Virus record (IMG/VR): IMGVR_UViG_2695420739_000005
Coordinates: 1 to 5,995 of that record
Direction: 5' to 3' (one strand)
Length of the DNA stretch: 5,995 nucleotides
DNA from: a virus
Taxonomy: Duplodnaviria; Heunggongvirae; Uroviricota; Caudoviricetes
The notes under the pieces are model-generated. The model had not been told where the DNA came from and searched no databases. It saw nothing but the letters and a program-made list of their open reading frames with translations. Numbering within the stretch: the first letter of the stretch is position 1; every line of letters starts with the position of its first letter. The position numbers and the translations under genes are program-made. This document shows, in pieces, positions 1-5,995 of the stretch.

Positions 1-2036
1 CAACGGTTCAGGGTGTCCTGGGTGGCTTTGACCGGGGCAATCAGGTTTTTAAACCACTGCCACGCGGCCTGTAACTTTTCGCCCAGCCAGTCAAACACCG
101 GCTTCAGTGGCGTGAACAGTTCCCCCACCGGCGCAAATGCCGCTTTCAGCCCTTCAACCACACCGCCAAAGAATGCGCTGACAGGCTCCCAGTATTTACG
201 GATAAGCAACGCCCCGGCGACAATGGCGGCCACCACGGCCACAACCGGCCAGCTAATCGCCCCGATGGCGGTTATAACAGCACTGCTAACCGTCGTGAAG
301 ATTGCCCCCATTGCGCCTGCTGCCGCGATAATGGCATTGATGCCGGTGATAACCGGCCAGGCTACAAGACCAATGGCACCGATGATGCCAATAAGCGCCA
401 GCGCGCCACCGACAATGAGGCCGATGGTTGACGCCAGTGATTTGTTTTTCTGGATCCAGCCGTCGAGTTTTAACACATACTTTGTGGCCGTCTGAGTGAG
501 CTTACGCAGTGCGCCTTCCTGCTGGTCAAACAGGTCAGTCCCCACCGCCTCATAAGCGGACTGAAACTCCTTAAAGTCACCGCCGAGGTTATCCTGCATG
601 ATTTTAACTAGCTCTTCCGTTTTACCGTCCGAGGCTTTCAGCGTGGCGGTCAGCGTATCCAGTTTTCCGCTTGCTGCCGCTGCCAGTAAAACGTTCGCTG
701 ATTTCAGGGCTTCCTCACCAAAAATGGTTTTAAGGTATTCCCCCTTCTGAGACGTTCCCAGCTTATGCTTATCAAAGCTGGCCTGAATCTCTTTCAGAAT
801 GGTGAACAACGGACGCATATTTCCCTTTTTGTCCGAGGTTTTAACGCCAAGCTCTTTGAGTGCATCCCATGCTTTTCCAGTCGGTGCCTGTAATCGGGTG
901 ACAACGGCACTGCTACCCGTACCCGCCATTGACCCCCTGATGTTATTGTCATGCAGCACACCGGTCATGGCCGCTGCCTGCTCAAGACTTACACCTGCCG
1001 TCCTCGCAACCGGGCCGAGGTAAGTCAGTGCATCACTGAGTCCCTGAAAATCAGCCGCCGACTTATTCATCGTTGCCGACAACACGTCGCCCACATGGCT
1101 GACATCATCATTTGACAGTTGAAAGGATGCCTTAGTCCCCAGCAACAATTGCGCGTTTTCTTCCATCGACCGCTGGTTTGCCAGTGCCATATTCAGTGTG
1201 ACCGGCGTTGCTGCCTGAATAGCCGCAGCATCTCCACCCGCTTTCGCAATGATAATCTGTGCACCGGCTGCATCATCTGCCGAGGCTGCGGTATTGTCGC
1301 CGAGCTGGCGCGCCTGCTTGCGGAGTGCGGTCATTTCGGCGGAGTCTTTTGCCACTCCGAGCACGGCCTGCAATTCTGAGTTTTTCTGCGCAAACTCATA
1401 ACCGGGCATCAGCAGCTTAACTCCGGCCATCGTTCCCGCCGCCGCAATCCCCACACCGGCAGCGCCCACTGAGGCCATATTTCCGGCCAGTTCCTTGCCT
1501 GCCTGATAACGCTGTTTTACTGCGTTAAGTTTTGCCTGTTGCGCGCTGACACGCGCCAGCGCGTCACGCTGACGGTTAAGCTGTGCGGTGGTTTCACTGA
1601 TACGGTTTTTCAGTCCCTGCTCATCATGTGCAAGATTGCGGGTATTAATTCCCACAACGGCCAGTTCCCGCTGCTGGCGTTTAACGGAATCCGTCAGGCG
1701 GTTATATTTCGCCTGTAAGTCCTCCGCCGCACGCTTTGCGGATTCCAGCACTTTCGCCTGAGCACGTGTCGGACGTTCGGTGTTTTTAAACTGTGTGGCA
1801 AGGGCTTCGGCCTCCTGCCGTGCCTTTTCAAGTGCATGACCAGTCACGGCGAGCTGTGCACTGGTCTTGCGAAATCCCTCAATACGGGATGCCTGACCGT
1901 TCAGCTCGCGCAGTGATTTTTGTGTTTCCCGGATATCCCCCGACAGCGATTTGCTCGCTGTGCGGATGGATTTAAACGGGCGGGATGCCTGGTCAACAGC
2001 CCTGAGCAATACCTGTAATTTTACATTGTTACTCAT
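1..2036 (-). CDS. T: Tail tape measure protein (P2 gpT-like), 5' part only; 3' end runs off the left edge of the window
   Basis: Minus-strand ATG at 2034-2036 opens a frame that I read as MSNNVKLQVLLRAVDQASRPFKSIRTASKSL... and that appears to stay open to position 1; it is absent from the ORF track, consistent with running off the window edge. The translation has long Ala/Gln/Leu-rich coiled-coil-like stretches and Gly/Ala/Ile-rich hydrophobic segments typical of tape measure proteins. It sits directly downstream of E/E' as in P2 (FI-FII-E-E'-T). Plus-strand ORFs 13..495, 799..1023, 1119..1379 and 1793..1975 are antisense to it. Confidence 0.88.
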   Translation of the reverse strand, partial: MSNNVKLQVLLRAVDQASRPFKSIRTASKSLSGDIRETQKSLRELNGQASRIEGFRKTSAQLAVTGHALEKARQEAEALATQFKNTERPTRAQAKVLESAKRAAEDLQAKYNRLTDSVKRQQRELAVVGINTRNLAHDEQGLKNRISETTAQLNRQRDALARVSAQQAKLNAVKQRYQAGKELAGNMASVGAAGVGIAAAGTMAGVKLLMPGYEFAQKNSELQAVLGVAKDSAEMTALRKQARQLGDNTAASADDAAGAQIIIAKAGGDAAAIQAATPVTLNMALANQRSMEENAQLLLGTKASFQLSNDDVSHVGDVLSATMNKSAADFQGLSDALTYLGPVARTAGVSLEQAAAMTGVLHDNNIRGSMAGTGSSAVVTRLQAPTGKAWDALKELGVKTSDKKGNMRPLFTILKEIQASFDKHKLGTSQKGEYLKTIFGEEALKSANVLLAAAASGKLDTLTATLKASDGKTEELVKIMQDNLGGDFKEFQSAYEAVGTDLFDQQEGALRKLTQTATKYVLKLDGWIQKNKSLASTIGLIVGGALALIGIIGAIGLVAWPVITGINAIIAAAGAMGAIFTTVSSAVITAIGAISWPVVAVVAAIVAGALLIRKYWEPVSAFFGGVVEGLKAAFAPVGELFTPLKPVFDWLGEKLQAAWQWFKNLIAPVKATQDTLNR

Positions 2037-2456
2037 TCGTGTTTCCGCTTCGCCGGAGCGCCTTTTCGCGCCATGTGATGAGTTCGGTCAGGCTCATGGG
2101 ATACAGTTCTGATGGCGGCCAGTGAAATATCACTGCCACATCCGCCATCAGGTCATCGACCGAGAGATTTTTCGGAAACGTCACTGCACCGAGTTCGGCG
2201 ACAAAAAACCGACCACCTTACCGGCCAGCGCCACAAGGTCAGGCAGTTCCAGCGCGGCGACCTCCTGCTCGGTCAGCATCGGTGCCGTCATGCGAGGCAG
2301 CACTTTAATCAGTGCATCGACTTCGGAGTTTGCGACCGCAGCCAGACTGACACCGCGCAGCGTCCCCGCACTGGGTTTCATCAGCGTGACCTGTTCGATA
2401 ACCTGCTCACCACGCTTGACCGGATTGTCCAGGGTAATCACATTTTCTTTGTTCAT
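2029..2456 (-). CDS. E+E': gpE+E' fusion made by programmed -1 ribosomal frameshift (predicted 142 aa)
   Basis: Minus-strand slippery heptamer T_TTT_TTG at 2202-2208 lies in E codons 84-85 (F-L). Shifting -1 there opens a 57-codon extension (VAELGAVTFPKNLSVDDLMADVAVIFHWPPSELYPMSLTELITWREKALRRSGNTNE) ending at TAA 2029-2031. That stop overlaps the T start in the string ATGAGTAA. This is the same architecture as P2 E/E' and lambda G/GT. Confidence 0.75.
2181..2456 (-). CDS. E: Tail assembly chaperone gpE (zero-frame product, 91 aa)
   Basis: ORF-track protein MNKENVITLDNPVKRGEQVIEQVTLMKPSAGTLRGVSLAAV...GFLSPNSVQ, recognised as P2 gpE. Position between FII and T matches P2 synteny. Ends 21 codons after a slippery heptamer. 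Confidence 0.9.
   Translation of the reverse strand: MNKENVITLDNPVKRGEQVIEQVTLMKPSAGTLRGVSLAAVANSEVDALIKVLPRMTAPMLTEQEVAALELPDLVALAGKVVGFLSPNSVQ
2202..2208 (-). promoter_or_regulatory. Programmed -1 frameshift slippery site T_TTT_TTG
   Basis: Plus-strand caaaaaa at 2202-2208 is TTTTTTG on the coding (minus) strand, in the X_XXY_YYZ register relative to the E frame. Confidence 0.75.
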
Positions 2457-2484
2457 GGTTTTCTCACTTCTTAATCAGGGTTAA

Positions 2485-2505
2485 CCGGTCAGCCTGGCTG
2501 ACCGG
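2485..2505 (-). other. GC-rich intercistronic hairpin between FII stop and E start (9 bp stem, 3 nt loop)
   Basis: ccggtcagc-ctg-gctgaccgg is a perfect 9 bp inverted repeat sitting in the 56 bp FII-E spacer. It is not followed by a U-tract on the transcribed strand, so it is not a canonical intrinsic terminator. Confidence 0.45.
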
Positions 2506-2512
2506 ATGAAAA

Positions 2513-3031
2513 TCACAGGCCGATATTTCGGCGGTGTTGCTCCAGCCGGTCGACGCCGTTCACCTTCTCAATCATGTTGATGGTGTCGATTTCGACCAGC
2601 TCCTTACCGTCCATCGTCAGCCGGAAATAGGTGCAGATCACGGAGATTTTCGACTCGGTGTCTTCTCCCTGTTTACCCTCGCCGGTGTCGATTTCTTTCT
2701 GACGTCCACGCATGACCACCTCGACGGCCACCGTTTCGCCGGTATCGTCGCGCTGGTAAGAGCCTGCAAAACGAATCGGTACGGCATCCACACCGGTTGC
2801 GGCGTAAAGCTCCCAGATAACCGAATCCGGGAAGCCACCGAGCGACCACTCCATTGACAGCGCATCGTCATCAAGGCCGAGGTCTACCGGTGCGCTGCCA
2901 TTCATCCCCGCACCGCGATAGTTTTCGAGCTTACGGGTCAGTTTTGGTAGCGTGACGGACTTCGCGACGCCCTGATAGCTGTAGCCGTTCAGAAAGACGT
3001 TCATTAACTTGAGTTTGCGCGGCATTGCCAT
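2513..3031 (-). CDS. FII: Contractile tail tube protein (P2 gpFII-like)
   Basis: ORF-track protein MAMPRKLKLMNVFLNGYSYQGVAKSVTLPKLTRKLENYRGAG... (172 aa), recognised as P2 FII. Strong SD (TAAGGAG) 8 nt upstream of the ATG, immediately after the FI stop. Confidence 0.92.
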   Translation of the reverse strand: MAMPRKLKLMNVFLNGYSYQGVAKSVTLPKLTRKLENYRGAGMNGSAPVDLGLDDDALSMEWSLGGFPDSVIWELYAATGVDAVPIRFAGSYQRDDTGETVAVEVVMRGRQKEIDTGEGKQGEDTESKISVICTYFRLTMDGKELVEIDTINMIEKVNGVDRLEQHRRNIGL

Positions 3032-3043
3032 CGGTCAGGCTCC

Positions 3044-4234
3044 TTAATTGCTGTTAACCGAGGTGACCAGATTTGCCAGGTATTTATCGGTAATACGCTG
3101 GCGCAGGGTCAGGTTTTCAAGAGGAGGTACCGGTGTATAGTCGTAGTCGATATACAGTTTTCCGGCCTTGAGGGTTTCCGCATCGTTGGATTCTTCGCTG
3201 AACCAGCAGGTCGCATCCACGATATAACCGTTTGTTTTCAGCTCACGGAATTTGGCATTGATGCCGTCAACGATGTCGCGAATCAGCGTTGCGGTGATGG
3301 GCTTGTCCACCGCCCACATGTGCGCCTCAGCCATCGTGTCGGCCAGCACCTGCGCGGTGCGGGTGTAGTTTTCAAAAAGGAACAGCGGGTCATCAGAGCA
3401 GGTACGGTTACCCCAGAATCGGAAACCGTCGCGGCGAATCAGCGTAGTGACGCCTGACTCGTTAAGCAGGTCAGCATCGGTGCCGGACTCCTGCAAATCC
3501 CAGAATACAGATGCGCTGATGCCGGTAACACCGTTTACCCCGACGTTGGACAGCGTTTTATGCCAGCCCTGCTCCTGGTCGATTTTAGCGCGCAGACCCA
3601 GCGCACGGGCGGTGGCATACGCGGTGGCGGTGGTACTGGCAACCGTATCCCATGCGAGGAAATCCGGCCAGATGACCATCAGCTCACGCTGGCTGAAATT
3701 CTGGCGGTAGGCTTTCACCTCGGAAATGGTCTTACAGCCCCACGCGCTGATATATCCGAAAGCGCGCAGCTTCTGACAGACGGATGCCAGTGCAATAGCC
3801 ACCTCTTTGGTATCCAGTCCCGGCACACCGAGAATACGCGGTTTAACACCGGTTACCGACTCCGCCGCCAGCAGGGCTTTCAGTCCGGTGTACTGACCGT
3901 TTTCGTCAGTGGTGCCGATGATATTGGAAACGGTCTGCGCGAGTTTCGTTTCCTCGTCGTCGCCGGTGCCGTCTTCCACACGCACGACAACGGTGACCGG
4001 TTTTGACTGGTCGGCGATAGCCTGCAACGATGCCGCCAGCGTGCCTTTTTTACCGGCCTTTGCAATTGCGCTTTGCACATTGGTAATCAGCACCGGTTTA
4101 TTGAGGGGGAAGGTTTCCGCATCCGCATCGCTGGCCGTGCAGACCATGCCGACAATGGCAGTGGATACAGTGGAAATGACGCGGGTGCCGTCGTTAATCT
4201 CCAGCACCTGCACGCCGTGATGATAGTCACTCAT
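3044..4234 (-). CDS. FI: Contractile tail sheath protein (P2 gpFI-like)
   Basis: ORF-track protein MSDYHHGVQVLEINDGTRVISTVSTAIVGMVCTASDADAETFPLNKPVLITNVQ... (396 aa), recognised as P2 FI. GGAG about 9 nt upstream of the ATG. Plus-strand ORFs 3447..3710, 3560..4006 and 3909..4220 and minus-strand ORF 3880..4080 are out-of-frame or antisense artefacts. Confidence 0.93.
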   Translation of the reverse strand: MSDYHHGVQVLEINDGTRVISTVSTAIVGMVCTASDADAETFPLNKPVLITNVQSAIAKAGKKGTLAASLQAIADQSKPVTVVVRVEDGTGDDEETKLAQTVSNIIGTTDENGQYTGLKALLAAESVTGVKPRILGVPGLDTKEVAIALASVCQKLRAFGYISAWGCKTISEVKAYRQNFSQRELMVIWPDFLAWDTVASTTATAYATARALGLRAKIDQEQGWHKTLSNVGVNGVTGISASVFWDLQESGTDADLLNESGVTTLIRRDGFRFWGNRTCSDDPLFLFENYTRTAQVLADTMAEAHMWAVDKPITATLIRDIVDGINAKFRELKTNGYIVDATCWFSEESNDAETLKAGKLYIDYDYTPVPPLENLTLRQRITDKYLANLVTSVNSN

Positions 4235-4293
4235 CCGTTTAACTCCGTGGTTAATGGGTGTGTGGTATTTTCAGTTGTGCCGGAGATATCAGG

Positions 4294-4887
4294 CTATTTG
4301 TCCCGGTTGGCTAAGGGATGACACAATTTATTCTTTGCCGCTGATGAGGGGAATTTTTTATAGAGCGTGGACAGGCCAATATCAAAAATCAGCGCCACAC
4401 GTTGACGAGATTCCCCCGCAGCCAGCAACCGTCCGACCTGCTCCCACTCACTCGTGGTGAGTTTCGGTCGTCTGCCACCAATACGACCTTTGGCTCTGGC
4501 CGCTTCCAGTCCGGCGCGTGTCCGCTCGACAATGAGTTCTCGCTCCATTTCAGCCAGGGCACCCATCACATGAAAGAAAAAACGCCCCATCGGCGTGCTG
4601 GTATCAATAGCATCCGTCAGGCTGCGAAAATTAACGCCGCGTTCGCGCAGTTCCTCAACCAGAATGACCAGATGCCGCATACTACGCCCCAGCCTGTCCA
4701 GCTTCCAGACTACCAGAGTGTCACCTGCTGATAATGTTCTGAGCAGCTTTTTCAGTCCCGGTCGGTCGGACTTCGTGCCGCTGATTTTATCCTCAAAAAT
4801 CAGCTCACATCCTGCGCACTCCAGCGCGTTACGCTGCAATTCCGTGTTCTGGTCATTTGTTGATACACGAACATAACCTATATGCAT
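4294..4887 (-). CDS. Site-specific serine DNA invertase (Gin/Hin/Cin/Pin, Din family)
   Basis: 197 aa. N-terminus MHIGYVRVSTNDQNTELQRNAL carries the catalytic-serine motif (YVRVSTxDQ) of resolvase/invertase catalytic domains. Also has the VVWKLDRLGRS and FFHVMGALAEMERELIVERT motifs and a C-terminal HTH region (GRRPKLT...LSTLYKKF). Sits beside an invertible tail-fibre cassette. Confidence 0.9.
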   Translation of the reverse strand: MHIGYVRVSTNDQNTELQRNALECAGCELIFEDKISGTKSDRPGLKKLLRTLSAGDTLVVWKLDRLGRSMRHLVILVEELRERGVNFRSLTDAIDTSTPMGRFFFHVMGALAEMERELIVERTRAGLEAARAKGRIGGRRPKLTTSEWEQVGRLLAAGESRQRVALIFDIGLSTLYKKFPSSAAKNKLCHPLANRDK

Positions 4888-5048
4888 AAAAATCCCTATA
4901 AAAACAGAATAATGACACAGAATTATCTATATATGTACAAGCGGACAAGACTATGGAGCACTCAATTACAATAATCTTGCAGGATAAGAATATTTACTGA
5001 TAGTGGATACATAGCCCACTTAGCATTCCCATGTGAATCAATTAAGTA

Positions 5049-5057
5049 TGGTAAGAT
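5049..5057 (+). promoter_or_regulatory. Candidate extended -10 promoter element (TGgTAAGAT) for the cargo ORF
   Basis: TG-n-TAAGAT lies about 30 nt upstream of the ATG at 5086. No convincing -35 was found, so this is weak. Confidence 0.25.
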
Positions 5058-5085
5058 ATGTTGACCTCAATAAAAGGAAAATCTG

Positions 5086-5403
5086 ATGAACATCGATACC
5101 AATAAAAAAACTACCACACTGAAATATTTTGTCGAAGCCTATCCAGAGAGAATCACTGCTCAAGCGTGGGAACGCCTGGTCAATGAAATTGGTGATTTAA
5201 AAGAAGTTTATGGATATATCGCCTTTCTGCATGACGATGGGTATCTTACAGGAAAGGTAATCTTTGATGGTTCTCCTGAAAGTATTGATGGATGGAGTGT
5301 AGATACTGACTCTCTAAGGATTACATCACAAGGTTATCATTATTGGAAAAAATCAAACCCTACAACACAAGGGAGTAGCGGAATCCTCAGAAGGAACAGA
5401 TAA
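5086..5403 (+). CDS. Hypothetical protein, 105 aa, unknown function (cargo gene in phage hotspot)
   Basis: ORF MNIDTNKKTTTLKYFVEAYPERITAQAWERLVNEIGDLKEVYGYIAFLHDDGYLTGKVIFDGS...; SD AAGGA at 5074-5078 with a 7 nt spacer to the ATG. It is the only ORF in the AT-rich island, is hydrophilic with no obvious transmembrane segment, and is followed by a strong hairpin at 5411-5440. I cannot assign it to a named family with confidence. Confidence 0.6.
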   Translation: MNIDTNKKTTTLKYFVEAYPERITAQAWERLVNEIGDLKEVYGYIAFLHDDGYLTGKVIFDGSPESIDGWSVDTDSLRITSQGYHYWKKSNPTTQGSSGILRRNR

Positions 5404-5410
5404 CTAATAA

Positions 5411-5440
5411 AGATGGTAGCACCATTTGGTGTTACCATCT
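5411..5440. terminator. Stem-loop (13 bp stem with one G-U pair, 4 nt loop), possible bidirectional terminator after the cargo ORF
   Basis: agatggtagcacc-attt-ggtgttaccatct starts 8 nt after the cargo stop codon. It is flanked by A-rich sequence on the 5' side (T-rich for a minus-strand transcript) and a weaker T content on the 3' side. Confidence 0.45.
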
Positions 5441-5529
5441 TAAAATATACCGTGACAATCAGCACTTTCCATTTTTATCTAACAATCAATACTAAAACAT
5501 TCCCTTCTTTCAACATCATATTTAACCGA

Positions 5530-5555
5530 TTCCATAAAACGTTGGTTTGGGAGAA
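5530..5555. other. Invertase crossover site (gix/cix/hix-like, 26 bp, imperfect dyad)
   Basis: TTCCATAAAACG-TT-GGTTTGGGAGAA. It has the AAAC..GGTTT core and TTC...GAA ends characteristic of Din-family crossover sites, and matches about 18 of 26 positions against Mu gixL as I recall it. It sits exactly where the tail-fibre variable reading frame begins. Confidence 0.7.
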
Positions 5556-5993
5556 GGCTCTGCATTACCTGTTGGTGTCCCTGTTCCGTGGCCTTCAGCT
5601 ACGCCGCCAACAGGCTGGCTGAAATGCAATGGCGCTGCCTTTGATAAGGTTAAATATCCCCGTCTTGCTACAGCATATCCATCAGGGAAACTACCTGATC
5701 TCCGCGGTGAGTTTATTCGTGGCTGGGATGATGGGCGCGGCATTGATACAGGGCGTGCTTTATTGAGTATTCAGAGTGATGAAGTCAGAAAGCTCGCATT
5801 AAAATACTGGGGACCAGCTTCAAACAGTTCACCATCAAAAACATTTGCACTCAGCGACAGTGCCGGTGGCGGGTTGTACACGGATGGAATAAGTCAGGCA
5901 AGCGGTGGGATTATCAACGCTTTTCAGCTCCCTGGCGGTAACGAAACCCGCCCACGAAATGTTGCATTTAACTATATCGTGAGGGCTGCATAA
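5547..5993 (+). CDS. Alternative tail-fibre C-terminal variable segment (silent cassette, Hv'/Sv'-like); no independent start
   Basis: The frame is open from 5538, just after an in-frame TAA at 5535-5537 inside the crossover site; the track start at 5547 is a TTG. The translation begins with the ...LPVGVPVPWPSATPPTGW... motif found at the constant/variable junction of Mu S and P2 H-type fibres and ends with NVAFNYIVRAA, the conserved C-terminal signature of these fibres. Orientation is opposite to the other tail genes, as expected for the unexpressed arm of an invertible segment. Confidence 0.8.
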   Translation: MGEGSALPVGVPVPWPSATPPTGWLKCNGAAFDKVKYPRLATAYPSGKLPDLRGEFIRGWDDGRGIDTGRALLSIQSDEVRKLALKYWGPASNSSPSKTFALSDSAGGGLYTDGISQASGGIINAFQLPGGNETRPRNVAFNYIVRAA

Positions 5994-5995
5994 TG
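5993..5995 (+). CDS. Start codon of the downstream gene, presumably a tail-fibre assembly chaperone (tfa'/U'-like); the body is outside the window
   Basis: ATG overlaps the cassette stop in the string TAATG, with GAGGG 7 nt upstream. Only the start codon is visible, so the identity is inferred purely from synteny with Mu S'-U' and P2 H-G. Confidence 0.35.

Follow-up and report, generated by a model that had tools for sequence, protein, structure and literature searches.

The G segment of phage Mu, served by the invertase Gin, shares its architecture with the locus described here. The constant N-terminus of the fiber lies outside the segment, the alternative C-termini and their chaperone genes lie inside, inverted 26-bp sites delimit it, and the invertase gene is located just outside. 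Mu differs in having a G segment of 3 kb, with repeats that reach 41 bp (93% complementarity), and in its backbone and fiber sequences. The C segment of phage P1 with cin presumably follows the same switch logic as Mu G/gin. For Hin and Gin, dimers were described to synapse on a Fis-bound enhancer, with all four strands cut at the core and one pair of subunits rotating by 180 degrees before religation (PMC3798978).

The P segment of element e14 of E. coli K-12 with its invertase gene pinE (stfP-tfaP / tfaE-stfE) likewise consists of two convergent units of a fiber tip and a tail fiber assembly gene (tfa) on about 1.8 kb, and the chaperone gene of the relatives of our locus is annotated as tfaE. 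Its sites harbor the same inner half (TTCTCCCAAACC) and the same AA/TT core as found here. While e14 is a defective lambdoid element with its site about 55 bp from pinE, the module described here occupies the interval between H and FI of a contractile-tail operon of P2 type, and its site is separated from the invertase by 642 bp owing to an inserted island.

Such switches have also been found in P2-like backgrounds. In phage pro483 and in a P2-like prophage of E. coli O157:H7 (Peduovirus), annotations cover the invertase and the two tips with their tfa genes, but these loci carry neither the 642-bp island nor its orphan open reading frame (ORF), and about 56 bp separate the site from the start of the invertase gene. 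P2-like prophages of the enteropathogenic E. coli (EPEC) strain E2348/69 revealed the same gene order, with the invertase adjoining the sheath gene FI, followed by the site and convergent tip/tfa pairs. One EPEC locus (L028, 2977580-2979467) shows the same layout with an invertase about 81% identical and more diverged tail genes; this locus is the remnant of a prophage and has an annotated integrase fragment flanking the segment at its outer end. A second one (L029) harbors three crossover-type sites (4684-4709, 5123-5148, and 6684-6709) and represents the shufflon-like arrangement with four variants reported by Goldberg et al. (PMC4272514). In the same study, published in 2014, coexisting orientations were detected in two P2-like prophages of E2348/69 by paired-end sequencing and PCR (Table S1 therein).

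Classical P2 agrees with our locus in the order of the tail genes and in the PF late promoter, but it is organized as H-G-terminator-fun(Z)-FI, with fun(Z) at the position of the invertase and a single fiber tip unrelated to the one described here. It has no invertase, as the reading made from the sequence alone (the sequence-only reading) had stated. A vestige of the crossover site or of tip similarity in P2 H was considered and rejected, since there was no site at up to 7 mismatches and no BLASTP match to the tip. For the Z/fun hotspot of P2, a DNA invertase is described as "often" encoded together with inverted neighboring genes (10.1101/2024.10.15.618418). We found a full-length match to the junction of invertase flank and tip in 853 of 5426 complete E. 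coli genomes, some of them of the e14 pinE type (row H91). Annotations of the invertase exist for pro483 and for several hundred complete genomes of E. coli. Given this distribution, the annotation in pro483, and the inversion demonstrated in EPEC, the switch type is already known and common in E. coli prophages. The sequence-only reading, which had proposed a Mu-like switch grafted onto a P2-type tail, was right about the architecture, but the combination is not new.

Invertase, crossover site, and silent tip in a P2-type tail operon

The stretch of DNA analyzed here comprises 5995 bp (the window) and represents the entire draft contig CYDY01000045.1 of assembly GCA_001286345.2 (100% identity over 5995 bp). 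Its minus strand encodes a P2-type tail module and an invertase. The contig starts inside the tape-measure gene (T, partial, minus strand), which is accompanied by gpE, identified by a Pfam match of the gpE-type chaperone and a TTTTTTG slippery site (2208-2202, minus strand), and by the genes for the tube FII (2513-3031, minus strand) and the sheath FI (3044-4234, minus strand), both identified by Pfam matches. Upstream of FI, the sequence aligns with the PF promoter region of P2 almost base for base, so that FI, FII, E/E' with slippery site, T, and the PF late promoter are all present as in a P2-like tail module. The TTTTTTG motif at 2202-2208 (minus strand), near the end of gpE, corresponds to the conserved -1 frameshift site of P2 E/E+E', and the E' frame (ORF 2029-2184) overlaps it. 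Positions 1-4887 of the window were 96.8% identical to Peduovirus pro483 and 95.9% identical to the O157:H7 locus (strain BB24-1, L004). A search of the window against Rfam gave no matches.

Adjoining the sheath gene, we identified a gene for a Pin-like serine DNA invertase of 197 amino acids (4294-4887, minus strand). The deduced protein harbors the catalytic Ser9 in the motif YVRVST and revealed the Pfam domains Resolvase (2.9e-52) and HTH_7 (4.7e-13). It was 86% identical to PinE of e14, 76% to Gin of Mu, and 96% to the invertase of pro483, and the best match among solved structures was Gin (3uj3, E=3.8e-93). The catalytic domain with Ser9, the C-terminal helix-turn-helix domain, and the kinship to Pin and Gin place it among the Din family recombinases. 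Hin touches Fis with Q151, R154, and L155 (PMC3798978); according to this numbering, their counterparts Q150, R153, and L154 are conserved here, as are the basic residues of helix B. Altogether, the ORF is uninterrupted, and no catalytic or Fis-contact residue is missing.

A candidate region for the recombinational enhancer with Fis sites would be located in the 5' part of the invertase gene (4730-4795, minus strand), as indicated by Fis-like 15-mers. In a crude scan, the window, pro483, and pinE each revealed such 15-mers centered at positions 101 and 138 of the gene; the one at position 101 was matched in gin too, and a further one at position 151 occurred in the window only. This crude pattern scan revealed no pair with the canonical 48-bp spacing in the invertase gene. 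At the other end of the gene, the last approximately 11 codons (4294-4326, minus strand) form a C-terminal extension absent from PinE. The DNA of this extension can be aligned with the PF late promoter of P2 at its activator-binding site (P2 17555-17583), so that the invertase cassette abuts and reads into the promoter of the sheath operon.

The invertase-proximal crossover site, which the sequence-only reading had noticed as a 26-bp site of Din type at the start of a fiber frame, could be confirmed at 5530-5555 (plus strand; TTCCATAAAACGTTGGTTTGGGAGAA). It consists of two 12-bp half-sites, an outer one (TTCCATAAAACG) and an inner one (GGTTTGGGAGAA), around a TT core (5542-5543), the halves being alike at 7 of 12 positions. 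The 26-mer occurs once in the window at up to three mismatches, with none expected (200 shuffles). Reference Din sites were taken from the annotated records of the MG1655 e14 P segment, whose inverted repeats are AAACCTTGGTTTGGGAGAAGG and CCTTCTCCCAAACCAACGTTT, and of the Mu G segment (TTATCCAAAACCTCGGTTTACAGGAA...). The site of the window matched each e14 pix site at 21 of 26 positions and Mu gix at 18 of 26. A comparison with the invertase-side site of the EPEC P2-like prophage L028 (TTCTCCCAAACCAACGTTTAAGAAAA) resulted in 22 of 26 matches. The site of the window recurs with identical placement in 15 related loci (L002, L003, and L005-L017).

The site opens into a frame for a silent alternative C-terminal tip of the tail fiber protein H (5538-5993, plus strand), assigned to the Collar type by domain and profile matches. 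This frame is closed upstream by an in-frame TAA stop inside the outer half-site (5535-5537, plus strand) and is open from the site to 5993 without an ATG or GTG start, the sole start-like codon being a TTG at 5547. Its product revealed similarities to Pfam Collar (E=8.7e-15), to PHROG 523 "tail collar fiber protein" (E=1e-68, over the C-terminal part of the profile), and to the gp37 tip of T4 (2xgf, E=1.6e-20). The tip is encoded on the plus strand, whereas sheath, tube, gpE, tape measure, and invertase are all encoded on the minus strand, which agrees with the earlier description of a fiber C-terminus oriented opposite to the tail operon behind an in-frame stop. At the very end of the window, TAATG (5991-5995) forms a stop/start overlap with the cognate tail fiber assembly (chaperone) gene, as in the relatives; of this gene, only the ATG (5993-5995, plus strand) lies before the contig end. 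In the O157:H7 locus L004, a tfa gene for 200 amino acids begins at the same position as this ATG. With the silent arm of O157:H7 BB24-1 (L004 7720-8159), the tip itself shares 100% identity; it was 99.78% identical to the expressed C-terminus of a 499-amino-acid H protein in locus L016. By this sequence comparison, the portion from the core (5542-5543) onward is the one that would be joined to H after inversion.

An AT-rich island with an orphan gene

The only unusual detail of the locus is a 642-bp AT-rich island with an orphan gene between the invertase start and the crossover site (4888-5529). The island has a GC content of 35% (0.354 vs. 0.553 for positions 1-4887) and stands in place of the spacer of about 55-56 bp found in O157:H7, pro483, and e14-type loci. 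Apart from the window, it was detected in a subset of E. coli prophages.

Its orphan ORF encodes 105 amino acids (5086-5403, plus strand) and is divergent from the invertase gene. Searches of the product against Pfam, PHROGs, PADLOC, and NCBIfam resulted in no family match, YjcQ at E=0.12 being the only hit, and its AlphaFold model was unusable (pLDDT 49.8). Homologues form only five clusters in 5.8 billion proteins, originating from Escherichia and Citrobacter. Those of Citrobacter adjoin tail fiber and chaperone genes with no invertase nearby, and another homologue adjoins a sheath gene; based on these neighborhoods, the ORF looks like cargo of a fiber/sheath hotspot and not like a part of the switch. 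Furthermore, island-bearing loci were found in both orientations (see below), so the insertion does not abolish inversion. Thus, the island looks like cargo that is dispensable for the switch.

Between the orphan ORF and the crossover site, 90 bp before the latter, we detected a hairpin with a perfect 14-bp stem (5410-5441, both strands; dG -22.5 kcal/mol, z -7.5). It probably serves as the terminator of the orphan gene's transcript and, read from the opposite strand, probably also of the late operon once transcription has passed through the segment.

The separation of 642 bp removes the promoter context of the e14 and O157 loci and might influence expression or the way the reaction proceeds. 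We give only a small chance to the idea that the island is more than cargo, either with its 105-amino-acid product, possibly a winged-helix protein like YjcQ, regulating the switch or acting in defense or exclusion, or with the longer distance between enhancer and site changing the reaction, e.g., toward more processive strand exchange. The latter has been reported for Hin substrates with long spacers (PMC3798978).

Partner site and orientation of the segment in related prophages

Since the window ends at 5995, the partner site had to be deduced from relatives, namely pro483, several closed E. coli genomes, and contigs encoding an identical orphan ORF or invertase. Among them, 17 complete related loci reach far enough to the right for the partner site to be counted. 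All 17 harbor an inverted partner site 1686-1909 bp to the right of the left site, inside the fiber gene H. The order is the same in each of them: invertase (minus strand), the island where present, left site, silent tip and tfa (plus strand), tfa and tip (minus strand), and partner site, followed by the constant part of H (minus strand) and then I, J, W, and V. In the relatives, the region beyond the right edge therefore contains what had been predicted there, namely the partner site, the expressed segment, and the constant part of H, all of which are outside this contig. In the relatives, the partner site is composed of TTCTCCCAAACC-AA-GGTATG(C/T)GAGAA, i.e., TTCTCCCAAACCAAGGTATG(C/T)GAGAA; in some of them, one base of the inner half differs. 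Its inner half and core are the same as in the site of the window, the core dinucleotide being equal at both ends.

The fiber gene H reads through the partner site without interruption. In L004, it forms an ORF for 473 amino acids (...LLAYLGLGEAAKRN...), and in L016 one for 499 amino acids (...LLAYLGLGEGSALPVGVPVPWPS...), both with the junction LLAYLGLGE. In L016, the tip of the window is fused in frame to the constant part of H (...LLAYLGLGEGSALPVG...). Each tip unit of the relatives possesses its own tfa gene with a Caudo_TAP domain. The constant N-terminus of the fiber lies outside the segment, and alternative C-termini with their chaperones lie inside it, as in segments of the G type.

A comparison of orientations revealed that the segment really inverts among related prophages. 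L016 was 99.84% identical to window positions 1-5556, after which positions 5539-5995 were found on the other strand of L016 with 99.78% identity, joined to H. Judged by this alignment, L016 is the same phage with the segment inverted. Further pairs of opposite orientation were L007 and L008 (100.0% over 1746 bp), L004 and L016 (99.9% over 1861 bp), and L011/L014 and L015 (99.9% over 1848 bp). Where inner half-sites differ by a single base, the variant goes along with the cassette, and the outer halves remain where they are: variant GGTTTTGGAGAA is located on the left in L007 and L009 and on the right in L006 and L008, and variant GGTTTAGGAGAA is the left-hand one in L012 but the right-hand one in L013 and L017. 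This places the point of exchange inside the 26-bp site. In addition, three contigs assembled from short reads (L020, L021, and L023) break off 1-16 bp beyond the site. Such stops would be expected if the reads held both orientations, because the shared repeat alone is too short to cause them.

For O157:H7, a 301-bp junction of H and tip and a 301-bp junction of invertase flank and tip were compared with closed genomes. The same tip was joined to H at 100% identity in the complete genomes of strains ECP19-2498, 2-6-2, ATCC 43890, and Z1834, and to the invertase flank at 100% identity in those of FRIK944, BB24-1, Z1835, and Z1836. Strains Z1834, Z1835, and Z1836, which show differing junctions, carry the common source label "Bovine Faeces".

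Based on these results, we interpret the right end of the window, with a probability of roughly 90%, as the unexpressed arm of a G-segment-type invertible tail fiber cassette of a P2-like E. coli prophage (Peduovirus). This agrees with the sequence-only reading, which had recognized the signature of such an arm and is now joined by the adjacent invertase of Pin/Gin type and by L016 as the flipped form.

According to the proposed mechanism, dimers of the Pin-like invertase would bind the site at 5530-5555 and its inverted partner about 1.7-1.9 kb to the right, inside H. A Fis-bound enhancer, presumed in the 5' part of the invertase gene, would assist synapsis of both sites, whereupon the invertase would cut both at the 2-bp core, rotate half of the complex by 180 degrees, and religate. 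By analogy with the related systems, we infer that the switch depends on Fis. The segment flipped in this way would comprise two convergent units, each with a fiber tip followed by its own chaperone gene. The tip facing H would be fused in frame at ...LLAYL|GLGE..., where LGLGE is encoded by the inner half-site, and expressed with its chaperone from the late V operon. The other tip would be kept silent by the missing start codon, the TAA in the outer half-site, and the strong hairpin upstream. In the orientation of the window, the Collar-type tip is silent, and the expressed tip of this strain is probably gp53-like, as suggested by an O157:H7 segment of 99.9% identity. By analogy, the switch may affect the host range, as the assignment of its tips to different families (Collar and Gp53-like_C) would suggest.

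In regard to the strain of the window itself, inversion activity appears likely from the relatives. There is a slim chance that the switch is dead in this strain, its invertase promoter displaced or its partner lost, so that the tip would be a permanently silent pseudogene fragment. Such a state would be in line with the partner lying outside the view of a contig that ends at 5995, with the replacement of the invertase-site spacer by foreign AT-rich DNA, and with the position of the single sigma-70-like match in 4200-5995 (5471-5444, minus strand), which is located about 560 bp upstream of the invertase start, none being close. However, a dead switch fits poorly with an invertase ORF that is intact and has kept all catalytic and Fis-contact residues, with the occurrence of opposite segment orientations among island-bearing loci (L016/L018 vs. 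the window, L011/L014 vs. L015, and L007 vs. L008 at 100%), and with short-read contigs of island-bearing prophages breaking exactly at the site.

We regard it as very improbable that the orientations arose by occasional RecA-dependent homologous recombination between the inverted repeats instead of by the site-specific invertase. One EPEC P2-like locus does possess inverted repeats that are long enough (215 bp, 92% alike), but in the prophage family of the window, the two sites share only about 14-21 identical bases. Moreover, the exchange maps inside the 26-bp site, to a point that separates the outer half from the variable position of the inner half, and a dedicated invertase always adjoins the segment. 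An assembly chimera of unrelated pieces joined at a short repeat (5530-5555), which might be suspected in a short contig of a draft assembly whose combination of island flank and this tip has no full-length match of at least 99% among complete E. coli genomes, can practically be dismissed, since junctions of the same kind (island flank, site, Collar tip) occur in closed genomes (L002 and L012), the junction is the exact product expected from inverting the L016 arrangement, and the contig is listed for two samples.

Annotation and assembly of the switch region

The main value of the invertible cassette as the preferred reading lies in annotation and assembly; the knowledge of Din-type inversion is left unchanged. 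Start-less "phage tail protein" fragments beside a "recombinase family protein" in P2-like prophages are to be read as silent arms of a functional switch and not as pseudogenes. For host-range prediction or the engineering of tailocins, both tips and both chaperones have to be considered. Draft assemblies tend to break at the switch sites, and the orientation recorded is a snapshot of a mixed population.

In regard to the contig of the window, its left edge lies inside the tape-measure gene and its right edge exactly at the TAATG overlap of tip and chaperone. The tail fiber assembly gene occurs in one to seven copies per genome (median 1), and a repeat of this chaperone gene would be a plausible cause of the contig end at 5995. 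The contig of L018 ends 115 bp before the boundary of tip and chaperone. Altogether, this suggests systematic assembly breaks at the switch in short-read contigs of this prophage family.

RefSeq splits the H gene of O157:H7 BB24-1 (L004 9195-10616, minus strand) into an incomplete pseudogene and a separate "gp53-like domain-containing protein", and the same applies to L002. The continuous ORF for 473 amino acids spans both annotated pieces in L004, and the split looks like an artefact of the mosaic tip.

The invertible segments of L001-L017 revealed at least six different lengths (1686, 1746, 1848, 1861, 1903, and 1909 bp), and different pairs of tip and chaperone were found behind the same sites. 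Thus, besides being inverted, the cassettes are also passed between phages. The silent arm of L005 seems to be degraded, with ORFs of 112 and 65 amino acids.
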